A stretch of 64,000 nt of DNA from Balanoglossus misakiensis (lineage: Eukaryota > Animalia > Hemichordata). The translations under genes and the position numbers were made by a program. Below the pieces are notes generated by a model. That model was not told where the DNA came from, did not search any database, and saw nothing but the letters and a program-made list of their open reading frames with translations. Location: positions 10,467,625-10,531,624 of the forward strand of contig CM082579.2 of NCBI GenBank assembly GCA_040954595.2. The letters run 5' to 3'. Shown here piece by piece: positions 31,803-43,700 of this stretch (its first letter is position 1; the number at the start of each line of letters is the position of its first letter).

Positions 31803-32211
31803 GAGCAAAGTTCGACACCATGCAGCATCAGGCAGACATCTTTTGACAAGAAACTAGCTGTCACTATATTGGATGTGGTCATTTAACATCAGAGGAGCAA
31901 GGAAATAAGAGATGGCTTTGGAACTTGGAACACACATACAAACTGTGCATCACTCAGCCATAGCAGGCCGGCGAACGTTTTGTTTATACTGCTTACCAAG
32001 TCAACCATGTCTGATGTGACCAGCTGGGTGGGGCACGTCATAAAATATTACGCCTATTGCCTGAATACATGGCGAATTGACCCTCAAAGACAGGAGACTA
32101 CAAACCCATGTAGAGTCAGGCAATAATATACACATATTGACTGGCCATGAACTGATATGTAATCTGATATGGGTATATTGTTGTTGTAATTGTTGTTGCT
32201 ATTGTCAATGT

Positions 32212-32575
32212 TATAGAAATAATGGACGACGCCCTGACCATTAATGTTTGTTTATGGGCGAGGGCGAGGGGAAAGCCAAAAATTTTGGCTTTCCTCGAGC
32301 CCTAGCCCATAAAAAACGTTAATGGTGATTGGTCAGGGCGAAGTCAGTTATTTCCATTTTATTACCAACGAACTCAAGAAAACCGTCAGAATTTACGAAA
32401 ATGTCCCATGCAAAAGACTAGGGGCCCCGGAACTCGTGTTACGCAAAATGTTGTATTCACTGAACTGTTTGTTAATATTACTATTCAGATTTACAAACAT
32501 TACTGAGTATTTGTGGTCAGTGACGTCGTTCATCTCGACCAATTAAAATGCGACGCACAGGCCATGGTAATATAA
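32212..32575. mobile_element. Non-autonomous element with a long subterminal hairpin (Crypton-like architecture)
   Basis: Imperfect palindrome at about 32225-32346 (cgccctgacca...tttatgggc...ggaaagccaaaa/ttttggctttcc...gcccataaa...tggtcagggcg); distal tggtaatataa is nearly complementary to internal ttattacca. Family assignment is inference. Confidence 0.45.
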
Positions 32576-32960
32576 TGTTGGATAATAAAATTGATTCCAT
32601 TACCTTGTTGGCATTGTAAATAATATGAGAAGAAAAACATAATTAATATGGCACAACGAAAATGCTGGATTACAGTTGGGGTTCAATGTCATTACTATAA
32701 GTAGATCACCAAGTGTGCTGATGACTATGGTCACTGGTTCTAACATAACACATATACAAGACAGACAAGAAATGGTTGTTTGTCTAACAGAGTGTATTTA
32801 CTTGGTATTGTCTTAGCACTTATTTCATTTCAATGTCTGCTCAACAATTTTGTTTACAGTTTCACATTTGTAGAAATATATTAAATAAAATATTTATTTA
32901 TTACATTATTTAAATTTTCTCAGAGTGTTGAAATACATACACCTTAGCCATAAATACTAT

Positions 32961-33590
32961 GAGGTTATTACGAAAATACCACAAAGTATGCACGAGGACA
33001 TTAGCGCTGAGTATCGCCCGTCGCGTAGCGGAGGGCGATGCGCTGCGCTAATGTCCGAGTGCATACTTTGCGGTATTTTCGTAATAACCTTATTATTATA
33101 CATCTTACATCTCCGTTAGTTCTTGTGTTGCATGTTACTTGGCTTTCAAAACGCCCAAAATGCCGATACAATCGATCGAAAACCGCTCAGTTGACTCAGT
33201 GAGCAGCCATCTTTCTTTTTTGTTTACGTGTGCGCACGTGCGTTGGAATGCGGGCGCCTTGAAACCGTCCGAACAGCGCATACCTGTACACGGTGAGTTT
33301 GGGGCGCCTTGAAACTAAGGCTTATTTAAAGGTATACGGTCACCTATACAAATTTAGCCACAGTTACCATGGTAAATCGAGATCTAACCAATCACAGATT
33401 TTCAGTGGGTGGCACACGCGAAAATAAAGCGTTCTTTAGAACACTCAAATACGCCATTTCAACTATATATGGCGATATGTAAATTGGAGGTGACCGTATA
33501 CCTTTAACGCGCGTTCCGTACGTACCGTTCCGTACGGCTTTTTATTGCACGCCAAAATCTATTGTTCTCGGCACTAGATGTATAATAATT
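32961..33590. mobile_element. Non-autonomous element with a hairpin of about 130 bp at one end (Crypton-like), containing a nested TTAA MITE
   Basis: aggttattacgaaaatacc.caaagtatgcac ... gtgcatactttg.ggtattttcgtaataacct palindrome at 32962-33090; terminal agatgtataataa complements internal ttattatacatct. The insertion is absent from the paralogous sequence at 40219-40403. Confidence 0.6.
33330..33503. mobile_element. Kolobok-like TTAA MITE (related sequence at about 2363-2500)
   Basis: TTAA|aggtatacggtcacct ... aggtgaccgtatacct|TTAA. Confidence 0.8.
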
Positions 33591-34752
33591 TTTTTTATCA
33601 AAGTATATATACTTGGAATTTACCCGACAATAAGTCAATCAGAGACTTTGTTTTCCTATGATTGGACAAAGGATATACATATGTGTAATTAAGGATGGGT
33701 AAGAAATTAGCCCTGCCTTCACTATAACCTTGCACCATTGTTCAGTTTATATGTGAGTGACTTCAAGGGGACGCTCATCTGGAAATTTGAATGCCAATGA
33801 TATAATATTTTAAGCCTAATCACTCCGCTCAAGAATATTGCCTATTGTTAAGGATTGGGAAGCTCGCATTGTTGAAGGCATATCCTGAGTGAAGTGCAGG
33901 CCAACAAACCAACGGAAAAAAGGGGGGGGGGGCGGGTGGGCGGGCGGGTGGGGAAATTGCCCCTTACAACTAGTGCCTATCCGTCCAACATTCCCTTTGG
34001 CCCCATTTCTTACCCCCTATCCTTTGTTATATTCCTTGTAGCTTCTGCCCTTCCCTGTGCGAGGAAATGACACAGAGTCTTCTGCCCTGTTCTTCTTTTA
34101 TACCTTTGTCATTCTTATGAATATTAATGAGATAACACCTGGCGGAATATTATCGCTACGTGATTAGGTTTTGAATAATATAATATTTAAAGCCTAATCA
34201 CTCCGCTCAAGAATATTGCCTATTGTTAAGGATTGGGAAGCTCGCATTGTTTCCGGCTATCCCCACCTCAGTGAAGGTCCTACCAGGTATCATAATTTCC
34301 CACACTCACACCTCTCATCTCCCAATCCTAACATACATTCCCCCTTTCCTAAATATCCCCAAACCTCAATGACCTGGTCCCTGTCTAGGGGCGCCCTCTA
34401 TGTCCCCCAGGAATATTGTTCTCTTACGCCAACTCCAATTCCCATGCTGGGATGTTCAACTGGAAAGAAACGATTCACACTATGATACCTCAAAAAATAA
34501 AGCATTTATGACCGTTTTGACTTCTTTTTTTTTTAAGAGGGCACCCCCAGACAGGAACCTGCGAATGGCAGGGAGCCGAAAAGGCAAGGGCTTAAAGAGT
34601 CGCCCCCCTGTCTGAGGATCCGGGAATGTCAACAAAATACCACATTATTCAAAGAATAACACATCAAGTGACTGGAATAACCGTAATGCGATTTACTCTT
34701 TATTGCTTTTAAGACACATGCTTACATCGAGTGACGTTTGAGTTACAACAAT

Positions 34753-37300
34753 TTATTTCTTTTGCTTACAATCTCTAGCAAAATGGCCTTCGGCACCACA
34801 GACGAAACACTTGGAATTTTTGGGCTTCGGTGACCTAGATTAACTATATCTACCATAAGGGGAATACTGACGATCAGGCTCCTTTGTATTACGAGTAAAT
34901 TTTTCAACTTTAGCTGCAATTTCCTCCTCCTCCTTATTGCCCAAAAGTAACAAAATTAATTGGCCAGCATCCTGACCAAACTCATTAGTTTCAAACTGGG
35001 CTAGCACGGCCCTATATCTAGTAAGCTTAGGATGAGCGGTTTTCGTGGCACGGTCAACAAGAACACGAAGAGCATTCAGCAGCTGTGGTCGTATGTTCCA
35101 CTCTCCCGACGTGGCAATCTCCATAACCTTTCGATGCGCGTCTGCTACAGAGTTGTTGTCTGCCATTTGCTGCAACTCATCCAATTTTTTCTGCATCACC
35201 TGCAGTTGTTGCTTCACCTGCAACAGAAAACACATTCTTACCAATTTGCATGGTACTTATTGTTTCCCCCACATTATGTAACACGACCCACTTCGGGCTC
35301 TGTCATTTGTGAAGCAAGTCTAAACCTCCAAGGCGTAGAACTAAGTACACCTATATTTTCCATACCTTTACGCCTTGACTCGCGTAAGGTGTAATTCTCA
35401 CATACTTTAACGCCTTGACTCGCGTAAAGTTTTTTATGAATACCATTACGCCTTGACGCGCGTAAGGTGTAATTCTCACATACTTTAACGCCTTGACGCG
35501 CGTAAAGTTTTTTATGAATACCATTACGCCTTGACGCGCGTAAGGTGTAATTCTCAAATACTTTAACGCCTTGACTCGCGTAAAGTTTTTTTTTTATGAA
35601 TACCATTACGCCTTGACTCGCGTAAGGTGTAATTCTCACATACTTTAACGCCTTGACTCGCGTAAAGTTTTTTTTTTTTTTTATGAATACCATTACGCCT
35701 TGACTCGCGTAAGGTGTAATTCTCACATACTTTAACGCCTTGACTCGTGTAAAGTTTTTTTATGAATACCATTACGCCTTGACTCACATAAGGTGTAATT
35801 CTCACATACTTTAACGCCTTGACTCGCGTAAAGTTTTTTATGAATACCATTACGCCTTGACTCGCGTAAGGTGTAATTCTCACATACTTTAACGCCTTGA
35901 CTCGCGTAAAGTTTTTTTATGAATACCATTACGCCTTGACTCACATAAGGTGTAATTCTCACATACTTTAACGCCTTGACTCGCGTAAAGTTTTTTTATG
36001 AATACCATTACGCCTTGACTCACATAAGGTGTAATTCTCACATACTTTAACGCCTTGACTCGCTTAAAGTTTTTTTATGAATACCATTACGCCTTGACTC
36101 ACATAAGGTGTAATTCTCACATTCTTTAACGCCTTGACTCGCGTAAAGTTTTTTATGAATACCATTACGCCTTGACTCGCGTAAGGTGTAATTCTCACAT
36201 ACTTTAACGCCTTGACTCGCGTAAAGTTTTTTTATGAATACCATTACGCCTTGACTCACATAAGGTGTAATTCTCACATACTTTAACGCCTTGACTCGCG
36301 TAAAGTTTTTTTATGAATACCATTACGCCTTGACTCACATAAGGTGTAATTCTCACATACTTTAACGCCTTGACTCGCGTAAAGTTTTTTTATGAATACC
36401 ATTACGCCTTGACTCGCGTAAGGTGTAATTCTCACATACTTTAACGCCTTGACTCGCGTAAAGTTTTTTTATGAATACCATTACGCCTTGACTCGCGTAA
36501 GGTGTAATTCTCACATACTTTAACGCCTTGACTCGCGTAAAGTTTTTTTATGAATACCATTACGCCTTGACTCGCGTAAGGTGTAATTCTCACATACTTT
36601 AACGCCTTGACGCGCGTAAAGTTTTTTATGAATACCATTACGCCTTGACTCGCGTAAGGTGTAATTCTCACATACTTTAACGCCTTGACGCGCGTAAAGT
36701 TTTTTTTATGAATACCTTTACGCCTTGACGCGCGTAAGGTGTAATTCTCAAATACTTTAACGCCTTGACTCGCGTAAAGTTTCGTATACAAGCCTTAACT
36801 CCATTTACCTTGTCTCCCACACCTGGTCGCCCACAAAGACAAATAAAACGATTAGCATACTAAGTAGGTCTTCAAAGTAAAAGGACTTGTAGGTGGCAAC
36901 CACCAATATCATCTACACGAGACTATGAAGTTTCCAAGCTCATAGAAATGCCACGACGAAGACAACAAGGAATAAAACCGACCTGCACCAAAAGTAACTC
37001 TGGGCTGCAAACAGAACGCACCTGTATGTCATGATGTTGACTATCTTGAGCCTCCGAAGGGGCTTCCAAAGGCTGAATAGCTTGTTCACCACTTGTACTT
37101 GCAGTAGTTGACCCCGTCGAAAGACTGGTAGGTAGGTGACGTTCTGGTCTGGCTGGTCTATCAGGACGATGGGCGTCCACAAAAGCTTGTGCGATATCAG
37201 AATCAGTGGCCGCTCCCCGAGTTGGCTCACGAAGTTCGGCAGCGTCTACAGCTACGTTGGAAGTGGTTTTCTGAGCAGCTACGTCTTGTCTCGAAGCCAT
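34753..37300 (-). pseudogene. Gag-like protein with CCHC zinc knuckle; two exons, one in-frame stop
   Basis: Exon 37022-37300 (MASRQD...HDIQ, donor CAG|GTGCGT) joins in phase 0 to exon 34753-35217 (acceptor tgtgttttctgttgcag|; VKQQLQVMQKKLDELQQ coiled-coil-like). After TAA at 34840-34842 the frame continues SRSPKPKNSKCFVCGAEGHFARDCKQKK* (CX2CX4HX4C). AATAAA on minus at about 34699-34704. Confidence 0.75.
35358..36783. repeat. Minisatellite of about 79 bp, 18 units, two hairpin cores per unit
   Basis: Unit atgaataccattacgccttgactcgcgtaaggtgtaattctcacatactttaacgccttgactcgcgtaaagt(n); 18 copies of ggtgtaattctca counted. Confidence 0.97.
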
Positions 37301-37336
37301 GTTCTATACCGGTGGAGACTGCCCTGACTGTGCGAG

Positions 37337-37375
37337 GAAATGACACAGAGTCTTCTGCCCTGTTCTTCTTTTATA
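37337..37375 (-). promoter_or_regulatory. TATA box and Inr-like motif inside the 5' repeat of the retroelement
   Basis: Minus strand TATAAAAG (37375-37368), TCATTTC about 30 nt downstream, then aacATGG at 37300. Confidence 0.55.
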
Positions 37376-37573
37376 CCTTTGTCATTCTTATGAATATTAA
37401 TGAGATAACACCTGGCGGAATATTATCGCTACGTGATTAGGTTTTGAATATGAATGCCAATGTAAGTGCCGCCTGAGCGCGTCTGACCATGGTCTGACCT
37501 TCTCTTTGTCTGTGGCTAGCTACATCACAACTCCCAGCAAGGGGTATCAGGTTTTCTTGGGCCTCTACTGTCT

Positions 37574-40106
37574 ATGGTGGAAGCAAAGCGGGCAAAATAC
37601 GGCTGGATACTAGACTCAATAATGACCCGGATTCTAGGCATCGACTTCGCCCCGTTGGTGGTGCCTTGGCACCGGCGGCTGGAGACGCTGGCGGCCGCCC
37701 ACTATGTCTTCAGCCGCGTCGTCCTGTGCACGCTCCCCAGTGTGCTGGTGCTGTACCTCCTGTTCGCCACCTCCTACTACTGGCTGGCCCTTCTCTACCT
37801 CACCTGGCTGGCCGTGGACTGGCGCACACCCAGACGGGGAGGCCGGCGGGCCTCCTGGTTCCGCCACTGGTGGTTGTGGAGGTACCTCGCCAGATATTTC
37901 CCGGTGAAGCTGGTCAAGACGTGTGAGCTGGACGCCAAGAACAACTACATATTCGGGTACCACCCGCACGGGATCCTGGCCGTAGGCGGATTCACCCATT
38001 TTGGGACAGAAGCCACGGATTTTAGTCAACTGTTCCCAGGAATCAAGCCCTACCTCTTGGTTTTGAAGATCATGTTAGCTTTACCATTTGCTCACGATTA
38101 TTACATGCTAGCGGGTAAGTAAGCACGTATGTTATCAGTAAACGAAATATTACAGAGGCCAGGTTTACAATCAGAGTAATCCATGTTCAACCACCAGTCA
38201 CATTTTACAGTGTTTACCAAAAATTACATTTTATTTTTCTGAAATTGGCATCGTAGGGTGCTGCGATGTGAGCAAAGACAGTATTCGCCACATCCTTGAA
38301 GAGGAAGGCACGGGCAATGCAGCCATCATTTTGGTCGGTGGTGCCAAAGAATCGCTGGAGTCGACACCCGGCCAATGCAAAGTGCTTCTGAAGAACAGGA
38401 AAGGTTTTTGCAAGATGGCACTCAAGCATGGGTAAGGTTTGTTTTTCAGTTTGTGTAGTTTTCTGTACAGGCACTGAATGACAGTTCACGCATTGTACGT
38501 AATCACATTATAAGAATTGCATTTTGGGTAAAAGGTCGACACCTCTCTGTAGTAGGACCTTGAAGAAATGATATGTTAACTATATTTCAACACTTTCTTT
38601 GATCAAACATTTCTGTCTTTGTAGTTATATTAAAATCACTCTACTTTTTTTTCACATTTTGTTATTTTTTCAAAGTTTCAGAATGACCCATTGTCACTTT
38701 AGCGGCTTATGAAATTCCATTTCTTAAACATGGCAAAATTCGGCCATCTTGAAATTGTGTCGACCACATGAGATTTTCATCACTCACCTATAAGGTAGCA
38801 AAAACCTATTTGAGGTAGCTCGAGAGTTACATATTATCGTAAAATGTATAGCCGCCAGTTTAGTCCTAAAATTTTAGCTCTCGTAGTAACATACGTGAAC
38901 AACCGTTGTGCCGTTTCTGTCTGTTTGTCCGTCCCACTTCCAGCCTGTCTGTCAGTTGACATGATACGATCATTCAGAAATTATCATTTTCTGTCAATAA
39001 TCGAAGTCATGACCCAAAAATTAACAACAATCTGACAAAAGCTGTCGACCATTTACATGTATGTAAATTTACCAGACTCACAGCCCTTTGTACTGAGGAC
39101 CCTATGTTTTCTAATTACCGGTTCTCTTCACCAACACAACGTTATCAACTCACTGTCTGGACGTACAACATATGTATACCCATTTCTCTGCAGTGCCCAT
39201 CTGGTGCCCGTGTACTCCTTTGGCGAGGAGGAACTCTACACAAAAGTGGACAATCCCACGGTCAGGAAAATACAGAACACGCTTAAGAGCTTGGTGGGCT
39301 TGACCATTCCTGTCTTCCACGGGCGTGGATTTTTCAACTACAATTTCGGACTTCTGCCTTACAGGCGAGCCATCAACACTTTTGGTAAGTTTCCAGTAGA
39401 CTGCGCCTATCTGCTTCAGGACGAGACATTTAAGAGTGAAGACTGTGAAGTCCAGAAAAGTGAAGCAGAAACGGTTGTCTGCTATAATTGTTAGATGACC
39501 TGAATGAATTCTGGCTACCATACATTGTACTAGGTTTTTACTTCGCGCTGAATTGAACTCTATAGGTAAAGGGTCGACAACTCACTGTAGTATAAAGAGA
39601 GAGAATAAGTGATGTGTTGATTGTATTTCATGACTGCCTTTTTAGTTACATTCAACTTTTTTTTCAAATTTTTATTATTTTTTCTGTTTCAAAGTATCAG
39701 TTTAGCTTATGACCTTCCATTTCTTAAACATGGCAACAATCGGCCATCTTGAAATTGTGTCGACCATATGAGATTTTCATCACTCACCTATAGGTAGCAA
39801 AACCCTATTTAAGTTATGGAAAATTATATTGCCCCCTTTTATTGCCCGTATCACTTCAGATAAGTGAGTGTTTCGATGGACCGTACTTTCCTTTTATTGT
39901 GTTCAGTAAGATGGAAGTGTATATCACTCTTGTTTGATCTTTGCTTTGCAGTGGGTTCTCCGATTCCAGTAGAGAAGGTACCGGAACCGACCAACGAAGA
40001 GTTGGACTCGCTGCATCGCCTTTACATTGAGAGACTCAAGGCTCTCTTCGACGAGCACAAAGTCAAGTTCCCAGAATATGCTAGCAAAGAGATCATCTTC
40101 ATATAA
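37574..40106 (+). CDS. DGAT2/MOGAT family acyltransferase (2-acylglycerol O-acyltransferase-like), 4 exons, about 353 aa
   Basis: Exons 37574-38114, 38257-38431, 39194-39384, 39952-40106, all GT-AG. Motifs FAPL...RRLET, TPRRGGR, YFPVKL, NYIFGYHPHG, VGGAKESL, RKGFCKMALKHGAHLVPVYSFGE, GLLPYRR, VGSPI, LFDEHK. The start could instead be the ATG at 37622. Confidence 0.93.
38520..38830. repeat. Dispersed repeat family (also about 39560-39815 and 52640-52925)
   Basis: Shared gtcgaca..c.ctgtagta ... ccatttcttaaacatggcaa..atcggccatcttgaaattgtgt ... gagattttcatcactcac. Confidence 0.8.
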
Positions 40107-40717: not shown

Positions 40718-43700
40718 TTACTTATCAAAACTCTGTGTCGCCAGATATTCCACACCAACCTTAGAATTCCATGTTTTTGAATTTTCAAATCCATTCTTTC
40801 CTTGTGAGTAATCCTGCCAGGCCTGCTTTGCTTCTTCTTCTGTAGTCATAACAAACGAACCTATTAAACAATTAACATAACTTTATTGATCAAATTATCC
40901 TTGTCGGTCGACTGACTTTGCTCTCTCCCTCTCACTCACTCACACACACACACACACCGTGACCAATATTTGCTTGAAATACTGTGTGAACACAACTCCC
41001 AGTGGTGTGTGTGTGGGCCTGTATTTATCTGTGTCTGTCTGTCTGCCTATCTATCTTAATATTGGGTTTTGTTTTTCCCTTGTTTATTCTTCGATATTAA
41101 ATGACGTCAGACGCGCTCTGGCGGCAGTTACGTAGGCATTCAAATTTCCAGATGACGGGCAACTTCAACAACGTGGTCCAGACGAAGACTGTGCAGACGA
41201 AATGCCATGAGGCTGATGAGGCACCATACCTGATACATGTTACGTGTTTGGTGGTTCTAAAGTAAAAACATACTCGGAAAAACTTTTACTGGATGTCGAA
41301 ATATTGCTTGCCCGTCATCTGGAATTGACTACATTGTGGGTCACATGGCCAGATCACATGATTGATAGTAAAGAATATGAATAAGTTCTCCAAAATCCTT
41401 CATTCATTGAATGTCAACTGATATCAGTGCCAAGATCTTTACCTTCCCACACAACTGGTTCTTTCAGAGGTTCACCAGCAATCAGGACAAAGTGGCACAT
41501 TTTGGAATCCTGAAACAGAATTTACACAGTATAGTTTAATCCTTTCACCCCAGCAAAATCTATCACCTTTAATGTTGCTGTGTACTGTTGTCTGCCAGCT
41601 GTTTTTAAGTGTCCACTGCACACGACCGGCAATGCCTGGCCACAAGCTTATACCATGGACGTCCATGCTTATACTAACACCGATTCGACACTTGTCAGTT
41701 TTTTATCATTCTTTTGTCAGTATTTTACAAAATATATGTGTGAAATCACTGAATGAAAGCCTCGAGTCGACACTTAGTCGTCAGTTTTTTATCACCTTTT
41801 TAATTTGCCAGTATTTCCACAGTCCCCAAAAGAAACAAAACACGCGTGTCTTTGTTGGTGGACAAGTACATGTACAAGGTTGACTGCCATGACAGGAACT
41901 TGTTCTGAGGTCAGAATCGAAACAAGAAAACCGTATATGACTCTAATAATAGCTAGACACAAAAATCTTGCTATAAAATGCACAGGAAACCATTCCCCCC
42001 CCCCCCCCCCCAGCAAAAACAACGACATGTCAACAAGTTGTAAGGAGTAGAAGAAGAAGAAGATTCAAATACTTGCTTTGTTTTCTGCCTCAATAAAGGT
42101 GCCATTGCTGAGAACCAGTGTACAATGCGTTTCCCCCAACACCATCTTTGATGCCGGACCTATGCAATAAATCATGTCAAATACAATTACGTTACATACT
42201 CTGTCCTTTTTGTATCAAACTTGATCTCCATGAAGTCAGCGGATGACGTGTTTTACGACGAAACCTGTCTAAACTGAAAACAAAAGGGACAGCAGAAATT
42301 GTTCGGTTTGCAGAGGTGTCTGGTTTATAGAGGTTCTTTTAACACGAGGTTCTATGTGAAAGGGACTGAAAAATGTCTTTGGTATAGACAGGTTCCAGAT
42401 TAGACAGGGTTTGGTGTACTAGATTTGAGAGAAACCAGTTCAGTTATGGCACATCATGGCAGTTTACTAGCACATGTACAAATTCTATTGCCATGGTTGG
42501 CATCAATCAAGGCAATTATAAAGATCGTGTCAAATAAAAGCTTGGCATGATGCTTTTCTAGATGCAAACTTAAAATCTCTTTCTGAAGACAGAATGTTGT
42601 ATATCGGAAATGAAAACTATTACCAAAATGACACTTTCCAGAGAGCACATAAACAAATGCTGTCCAGTCTTGAGGAATGGCTTGTTTCAGTTTAGCACCC
42701 TGTTTTAGTTTGAAGTCCAGATACATTGTTGGTGTCCGGGTCCTCACTTAAGACTTTGAATAGGGGAATATGAAAAAAATATACGAACAAATATAAAATA
42801 TTCTCTCCCTATGATACAATGACAAAAACAGTGCATACTTAGGACAAGCATCTGTGCATAATCATGCTCTCAGAAAAGTTTTGACCAAAAAATACTACAC
42901 ATACTGTCATTTTACCAGATTAAATCTGATAGTCACTTGTTAAGCCTCATGAGCTGCAACTCGATAATTTTTGAAGCTTTAAATAATCTCTGATTTATAA
43001 ATTGGTAGTCAGACAGACAGACCAGAGACGAATGGATGAAAATGTTTTAATTTGGATTTACTAAAATCAAAAATGGTCCCAAAAACAGAAATAAATTCCA
43101 AAATTGAATACCTTAACTCCCATGGACTCTCCGGCGATAATTTTAACCGTGATCCCATTCTTGTTGACTTTCGGTATGTCTTTATCTGCCAATTCTTGAT
43201 ACTGAGGATCTATCATCTTATGTTCTTTGCCAAGGTTAACCCAGAGCTGTAGACCATGAGCCTCACTTTGGCCAGCTGGCATTTCTGAATGAACAATACC
43301 TTTACCTGCTGTCATCCACTGAGTCACCAACCACCCAACAACCAAACAACAAACATAAAACATGGGTTATATATATTTCAAAATTTTTCATGTTGACTGA
43401 GGAATCTGCAATGTTCTCCACTAGGGCAGTGCATATGTACGTGGAATAGAAGTTTAAAATTAATTCAAATAAAACACTAGCATCATTTGAAAAAAGGCAG
43501 TACACTTTTTCGCACTTTCATTTCCTTTCACTAAAACATTTGATGAAACATACGAAATCAAAACATCCCCCCCCCCCCCCCCCGCCCCTGTGGTCTTCAT
43601 TCTGTGCTCTCTTTGGTTTATTATTGTTAAGAAAATACTCCAGTATGATGCAATTTGTGCTGCTGTCTTCCAATGTGTTAATTGTGAGTGAGAAACACAG

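Follow-up and report, generated by a model that had tools for sequence, protein, structure and literature searches.

A PAT-like retrotransposon of Balanoglossus misakiensis whose gag intron appears to carry repeated RNA hairpins

Results

A predicted gag intron filled by a tandem array

The 64,000-nucleotide stretch of Balanoglossus misakiensis DNA considered here (contig CM082579.2, positions 10,467,625 to 10,531,624; hereafter the window) contains on its minus strand a 3.65-kb retroelement with split direct repeats, which encodes gag only and whose gag gene is divided by a predicted intron that houses a tandem array of short stem-loops. The element is best classed as a non-autonomous PAT-like member of the DIRS order, the tyrosine-recombinase retrotransposons. 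The parts of its gag gene, in the sense of transcription, are the following.

37022..37300, minus strand: gag exon 1, 93 codons of low complexity, with an FV.AH motif common to Ptychodera flava homologues
35218..37021, minus strand: predicted gag intron of 1,804 nt in phase 0 (GT...polypyrimidine-CAG), at a codon and phase matching the gag intron of the relatives L001-L003
35358..36783, minus strand: array of 18 tandem units, each a dimer of an A and a B hairpin, with 36 predicted stem-loops of 8-10 bp in all
34753..35217, minus strand: gag exon 2, a helical domain and one CCHC zinc knuckle (about 34762-34812)

The first-pass annotation, made from the letters of the window, had placed the array wholly inside the predicted intron, and this is where it lies, flanked on both sides by the GT..AG boundaries at 37021-35218 of the minus strand, the donor being 238 nt away and the acceptor 140 nt. 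Read without splicing, the gag frame reaches a stop 33 codons into the intron. Exon 2 matches five Ptychodera flava proteins of 225-242 amino acids at 53-65% identity, and these proteins hold the FV.AH motif of exon 1, the helical domain and the CCHC knuckle (4/5, by precomputed Pfam annotation) on a single chain, in support of the splice as predicted. Among named Gags the nearest belong to hemichordates, and the window sequence is typical of an intron-rich animal. A CCHC zinc finger was found in 7/7 Gag homologues scanned. The knuckle of the window copy (PF00098, E 1.4e-8) is located behind an in-frame stop at 34840-34842 on the minus strand, 11 codons ahead of its first cysteine, a position through which the five aligned P. 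flava homologues read. A fold search with the Gag helical domain returned generic helical bundles only (best Z 9.4, root-mean-square deviation (rmsd) 4.2, 100 residues aligned), and no capsid fold was listed, a result that neither shows nor excludes a capsid.

Units, cores and predicted stems

The array was found as first annotated, with 36 cores that span 35367-36777 and form 18 units (78-87 bp; the final unit is truncated), and Tandem Repeats Finder (TRF) gives it a period of 79 with 97% matches; four 10/11-mers from the core have zero occurrences outside the array within the 64-kb window. Each unit is a dimer, the two hairpins of which are mutually diverged. On the minus (sense) strand the A hairpin reads ACCUUACGC-GAGUCAAG-GCGUAAUGGU and the B hairpin ACUUUACGC-GAGUCAAG-GCGUUAAAGU, and in both types the predicted stem reaches into the linkers to give 9 bp with a single bulge. 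The pairing originally proposed is borne out insofar as all 10 distinct core variants are predicted to fold, but a perfect TTACGC/GCGTAA stem is restricted to 12/36 cores, 18/36 being of the B type (TTAACGC) and 6/36 carrying CACATAA. The description of a near-constant 8-nt loop likewise holds for the GAGUCAAG found in 30/36 cores and not for the 6/36 in which the sense strand reads GCGUCAAG. Two other details required correction: the linkers had been called fixed, and one of them contains a T-run that varies from 6 to 15 nt from unit to unit; and the CACATAA variant had been called stem-breaking, although its two CpG-type transitions become two G·U pairs on the sense strand, where 9 pairs are retained and the predicted stem is weakened rather than broken (-6.4 versus -10.4 kcal/mol).

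Each of the 10 distinct 27-nt core variants is predicted to fold alone as an 8-10-bp hairpin on the sense strand, and in 9/10 the sense fold is better than the antisense fold. A single unit folds with a z-score of -3.33 in the sense and -3.26 in the antisense direction, with 0/200 shuffles equally good, and the near-equality of these values means that stability alone cannot choose the strand. Between the A and the B hairpin 4/19 arm positions differ, including a C-G to U-A swap, 0/8 loop positions do, and the spacer differs throughout; in 20,000 trials, four random arm changes preserved 9 pairs and the loop in only 1.4-1.6%. No Rfam covariance model matched at E up to 1 across 33500-37700, and a protein-coding repeat was rejected because the changes in T-run length break the reading frames of the array. 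About 30 nt past the array, at 35329-35337, there is a 9-nt partial copy of the core in inverted orientation, which in the sense RNA might base-pair with a core's loop and 3' arm; a similar near-complement is present in the A linker and allows an alternative fold.

Coral-like relatives have a predicted intron at the same codon and phase

The comparison set for the intron consists of six metagenome loci (L001-L006) from a more distant Gag group, one member of which is named from the coral Oculina. The window and coral-like Gag groups are homologous (hhalign probability 99.6%, E 1.6e-24). L001, L002 and L003 each show an ATG, an exon 1 of 45-54 codons, a GT donor and an intron, of 717, 720 and 1,366 nt, respectively, and their acceptor precedes the sequence LAQQI in phase 0, at the alignment column occupied by VKQQL of the window. 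The predicted gag intron is thus at the codon and phase of the window in 3/3 loci that have both splice sites. In L004-L006 the acceptor alone is visible, the donor region of L005 having been lost to a deletion at about 930 that joins exon 1 to mid-intron and retains the hairpin cluster. Searches for close gag relatives gave 0/596 candidate stretches in metagenome contigs and 0/101 in viral contigs, and a search with the pol-like tail of protein P0021 gave 0/20 candidates.

The introns of L001, L002 and L003 contain 8, 8 and 9 copies, respectively, of the motif CGGT.G.GGCCG with at most 1 mismatch, compared with 0 antisense and 0 elsewhere in the loci; 300 shuffles each gave at most 1. The motif corresponds to a predicted hairpin of the form CGGU-NGNG-GCCG. 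Between L002 and L003 exon 2 is 78% identical over 508 nt, but the introns match only in 8 short pieces of 16-60 nt around the motif. When the loop was left free, 19 distinct exact CGG-N6-CCG sites were found in 3,274 intron bases and 2 in 12,913 other bases, and position by position the loops of these 19 have U in 19/19, any base, G in 19/19, any base, G in 18/19 and again G in 18/19, a U-N-G-N-G-G consensus that predicts an N-G-N-G tetraloop closed by U·G; the 5 sites in L003 bear 5 different loops. Covariation was assessed on 26 hairpins with at most 1 mismatch, with near-repeats between L001 and L002 and two-mismatch matches left out. In this set 82.7% of cells are paired and both sides change in 4/8 pairs, giving a covariation score of 0.215 that was matched by 3/500 shuffles and exceeds all 6 slid controls; the pair count was reached in 241/500 shuffles. 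The ratio of G·U to A·C cells, closing pair excluded, is 20:4, and the sense strand folds better in 23/26 hairpins. The hairpin cluster is partly a degenerate 31/62-bp tandem (L001 2834-3021, L002 585-729, L005 938-1089), an older stage of the amplify-and-diverge pattern seen in the window array.

Element anatomy and family placement

Outside the gag gene the element consists of the split repeats and a 3' non-coding stretch.

37328..37450, minus strand: split direct repeat A1, 123 nt with the same sequence as A2; the TATA-like TATAAAA lies at 37375
34252..34752, minus strand: 3' non-coding stretch of about 500 nt
34178..34251, minus strand: split direct repeat B1, 74 nt, differing from B2 by 1 mismatch
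34055..34177, minus strand: split direct repeat A2, which abuts B1 to form the internal B|A junction
33800..33873, minus strand: split direct repeat B2, the element's 3' end, lying 181 nt beyond A2

In the 34252..34752 stretch no pol or recombinase remnant was seen, neither tblastn of 121 proteins nor a hidden Markov model of A6 giving a pol match. The element resembles PAT-like elements in its A1..B1A2..B2 split direct repeats and CCHC Gag, and further parts of the family are seen in its relatives. The open reading frame after gag in L005 is the start of a reverse transcriptase (RT; PF00078), with 465 protein matches, and a P. flava gag model continues into an L005-type pol start (E 6e-9). 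A modelled full-length pol relative matched RT (Z 18.9, rmsd 8.8, 418 aligned), RNase H (Z 16.5, rmsd 2.1, 122 aligned) and, through residues 526-678, adenine methyltransferases (Z 10.7, rmsd 2.6, 129 aligned), with T4 Dam matching the modelled C-terminus at Z 10.1 (rmsd 2.7, 116 aligned). A sequence-profile search of pol against the PDB matched RT and RNase H and not the methyltransferase, which was recovered by the fold search. A YxFPP motif is present in 42/51 long pol proteins. In one gene model, P0065, pol continues into a Zn-ribbon/ALOG domain (ALOG E 2e-28), and the ALOG domain is derived from DIRS recombinases (PMC3537659). L006 gave a weak PF00589 match (E 0.08), and at 1291-1974 of this locus an internal deletion joins the RT start directly to the recombinase tail. 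No complete recombinase was seen beside this gag.

Split repeats together with a methyltransferase and a zinc-finger Gag indicate a PAT-like element rather than Ngaro (PMC4157794, PMC3266345). Ngaro elements share the A1-ORFs-B1A2B2 layout but are described as having no methyltransferase (PMC3266345), whereas the relatives' pol has one, and membership in Ngaro was rejected on the strength of this fold at the pol C-terminus. A PAT family common to Nematostella and Saccoglossus is mentioned in PMC3266345. A Penelope-like pseudo-LTR (long terminal repeat) layout was also rejected, as the 181 nt downstream of A2 are unlike the sequence following A1.

Copies in sequencing reads

Three DNA runs (X1-X3) from one sample, which is possibly the window's own source and hence not independent, contain the element, and their contigs were compared with 36705-38100, which takes in the right part of the element. 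The depth of the main element contigs is 349-736, compared with 23-48 for X1 contigs on the neighboring host gene and 113-386 for host contigs of X2, although depth is not copy number. At the A1 end (37450), 6 and 5 contigs run on into differing sequences (agreement 0.5-0.6), so several insertions have the same A1 end. The main contigs of X1 and X2 start in exon 1, cross the donor and reach the last array unit; joints between units have depths of 1109 and 820 in X1, and no loose ends at the donor were seen among those listed (16 of 60). In this one other data set, then, the array accompanies the element. One contig, about 92% alike, connects a core to intron sequence. A free-satellite form of the array unit may also exist. 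Within exon 1 (37129-37237), 6 sites distinguish the window copy from the main X1 and X2 contigs, which also have 12 additional bases there, with the frame kept.

Discussion

A candidate tag on the unspliced RNA

In this PAT-like DIRS element the gag intron seems to have been conserved as a carrier of repeated RNA hairpins. In both lineages the intron is filled with repeated short hairpins that have G-N-G in their loops, and the nucleocapsid (NC) knuckles of HIV-1 (human immunodeficiency virus type 1) contact the exposed Gs of GGAG/GGUG tetraloops and prefer GXG (PMC7599994, PMC4100767). The shared intron, the repeated G-N-G hairpins and this preference together suggest that the array would serve as a multivalent label of the unspliced, genomic RNA, with Gag as its probable reader, an interpretation drawn from sequence, predicted folds and analogy to which we assign a probability of about one half. 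The first-pass proposal of a signal confined to unspliced RNA is strengthened by the relatives, with their own predicted sense-strand hairpins in a predicted intron at the same position; the partner that binds the RNA would be Gag or a host export or splicing factor.

Under this interpretation, transcription would run from A1 to B2, as the split-repeat anatomy and the TATA-like box suggest, and splicing at the predicted sites would yield a gag mRNA that lacks the array, whereas the unspliced RNA would display up to 36 hairpins. Because the element encodes gag only, its spliced and unspliced RNAs would differ by the intron alone. A single-knuckle Gag might gain specificity through avidity at the G-N-G loops, in analogy to retroviral NC, and the tagged unspliced RNA would then be packaged and reverse transcribed as the genome, with RT and recombinase supplied in trans by an autonomous PAT-like partner of the kind represented by the relatives. 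An RNA-copied element would be expected to lose an intron if its spliced RNA could be copied too, and one that has kept the intron in distant hosts must presumably bar the spliced form from replication. The tandem form may reflect recent amplification of one A + B hairpin pair, the coral-like relatives keeping 8-9 dispersed copies of a different hairpin. A broader and more tentative proposal, which we hold at somewhat less than even odds, is that in a cnidarian-to-hemichordate lineage of tyrosine-recombinase retrotransposons an ancient gag intron serves as a sorting switch: spliced RNA would give Gag, and RNA that retains the intron would show a G-N-G hairpin polymer, co-evolving with the one zinc knuckle of the family, by which the genome is chosen for packaging.

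Several observations weigh against a Gag-read tag. The Gag of the window copy ends before the knuckle, and the binder would need to come from another copy. The window and relatives' hairpins have zero sequence similarity, and a common function consequently rests on position and shape. L001, L002 and L005 belong to a single subfamily, which leaves about two independent introns, and the 97% identity of the window units reduces the 36 cores to few evolutionary events. The G1 and G3 of the window loop are invariant relative to just one loop variant, and in the 3 B cores with a GCG loop the predicted register shifts and part of the G-N-G is buried. Local folding of the whole array gives a loop-closing probability of at least 0.9 in only 25/36 cores and a closing-pair probability of 0.30-0.37 in the six CACATAA cores, a weakening variant that has nevertheless spread to 6/18 A cores. 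The sense and antisense z-scores of the window unit are near-equal, and in one stretch of L003 the antisense z-score is the better one (-2.51 versus -1.53 sense). For the relatives, the motif was defined post hoc, after the sequences had been viewed, the shuffle control for covariation disregards relatedness, and the introns are T- and G-rich, which inherently favors G·U. Finally, a swap of the HIV GGAG loop had little effect on packaging (PMC7599994), and this tolerance makes the loop analogy soft.

The same positional and structural evidence fits equally well with a host factor that reads the hairpins on the unspliced RNA, where they would then work in nuclear export, splice attenuation or RNA stability, in the manner of a constitutive transport element in multimerised form. 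Retroelements must indeed overcome the nuclear retention of intron-containing RNA (PMC10309623), and the full-length RNA of Copia EVD requires intron retention or intronic sequence (PMC5580714). The G-N-G loop, however, agrees with the preference of the knuckle, and a loop sequence that is wholly different between the lineages would better fit a fast-changing element protein than a host one, and we regard a host reader as unlikely. A neutral minisatellite, in which a small palindrome was amplified by slippage or template switching in a tolerant intron, would account for the 97% identical units, the slipping T-run (6-15), the patchy variants, including the weakening CpG-type change in 6/18 A cores, and the limitation of covariation inside the array to the A/B pair. 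It leaves unexplained the shared intron position, the relatives' dispersed conserved hairpins amid turned-over linkers and the stem-preserving A/B differences (1.4-1.6% in the null), and as a full explanation we consider it rather unlikely, though it may still account for the copy number of 36.

An array of DNA-level sites, either an intronic enhancer of bZIP-like half sites or loxP-like tyrosine-recombinase sites with 9-bp inverted arms and an 8-bp asymmetric core, would make sense of the array's 46 TTACGC/GCGTAA half sites and its 6 copies each of TGACTCA and TGACG, of its CpG observed/expected ratio of 1.95 and of the equal folding of both strands. We take the geometry of arms and core to resemble that of loxP/FRT, and the motifs to be presumably of bZIP type. 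The cores are nevertheless unlike the B|A junction and unlike the target site, directly repeated recombination sites would be expected to self-delete, and the relatives' near-fixed U·G and G·U substitutions pair on one strand only; we therefore judge a role at the level of DNA to be improbable.

Comparison with known systems

PAT-like elements (the echinoderm form Pat1/SpPat1, the Nematostella/Saccoglossus PAT family and the ALOG-recombinase DIRS1-type elements) are like the window element in their split repeats and zinc-knuckle Gag, and in the relatives gag is followed by RT, RNase H, the methyltransferase fold and, in one gene model, Zn-ribbon/ALOG. The window element differs from them in being gag-only, in its hairpin-filled gag intron and in its 12-bp target duplication. 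Two algal elements, TOC1 of Chlamydomonas and kangaroo-1 of Volvox, have PAT-group split repeats as in the window, and TOC1 is a non-autonomous DIRS element, as is the window copy, whereas the TOC and kangaroo Gags are without the zinc finger of the window family (PMC4157794). The resemblance to TOC1 and kangaroo suggested in the first-pass annotation therefore holds at the level of the PAT-type split-repeat family. Its other half concerned internal tandem arrays of similar unit size; those of TOC1 and kangaroo-1 would have units of about 76 and about 89 bp, and the literature search gave no paper that describes them.

A parallel in shape is offered by the SL2/SL3 packaging signals of HIV-1, which NC binds: short hairpins with G-N-G loops confined to unspliced RNA, as those of the array would be, with a CCHC knuckle protein encoded alongside. 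In the PAT-like elements there would instead be 8-36 near-identical hairpins inside a gag intron, Gag would be made from spliced RNA and has one knuckle, and binding is a proposal. A parallel in RNA sorting is Copia EVD (Ty1/Copia), which makes Gag from spliced RNA and uses the intron-retaining RNA as genome (PMC5580714). The EVD intron sits at the end of gag and the unspliced frame stays open, whereas the window intron splits gag after codon 93, closes the frame and carries the hairpins. The words "intron" and "tandem" are absent from the DIRS/PAT/Ngaro surveys checked, PMC4157794, PMC6681497, PMC3783388 and PMC3266345, and the literature search gave no description of a hairpin array within a gag intron of DIRS/PAT elements, although the additional files of PMC3537659 and PMC3266345, or Repbase, may already annotate the intron or repeats of this family. 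The papers examined are silent on how DIRS-order elements select the RNA to copy ("packag" is absent from PMC7192593). If the interpretation as a Gag-read tag is correct, the array would be the first candidate packaging signal that we could find for the DIRS order and a modular RNA tag tunable by copy number, and it would explain how gag-only elements compete in trans for RT and recombinase. The candidate signal is short, discrete and repeated, and with two natural spellings and the Gags that match them, a small protein together with an RNA of 27 nt would be enough to test it.

Insertion site and surroundings

An exact 12-bp repeat stands on either side of the element.

33788..33799, no strand: 12-bp target-site duplication, left copy
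37451..37462, no strand: 12-bp target-site duplication, right copy

This repeat is missing from the internal B|A junction, and the 12-mer is single at an empty paralogous site (41106-41155) and in one X3 contig. A small dispersed repeat served as the target; two ATT triplets lie six bases apart within it, and it has ATTCAAA (7 nt) in common with the start of A. DIRS1-type integration involves no target-site duplication and uses an NTT trinucleotide (PMC3266345), and the 12-bp duplication, seen in one copy, departs from this model. Two strand exchanges at neighboring ATT sites could explain the duplication in this single copy, or some copies may depart from the standard recombinase model and integrate with a 12-bp duplication of the staggered kind.

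A diacylglycerol/monoacylglycerol acyltransferase gene extends from 37520-38119 onward on the plus strand (PF03982, E 9e-41). It starts about 130-170 nt from the 5' end of the element and in the opposite direction, which places the insertion in the promoter region of that gene. Transposon-like inverted repeats of the miniature DNA type are found near the element at 32202-32368, 32959-33093, 33326-33507 and 41144-41322.

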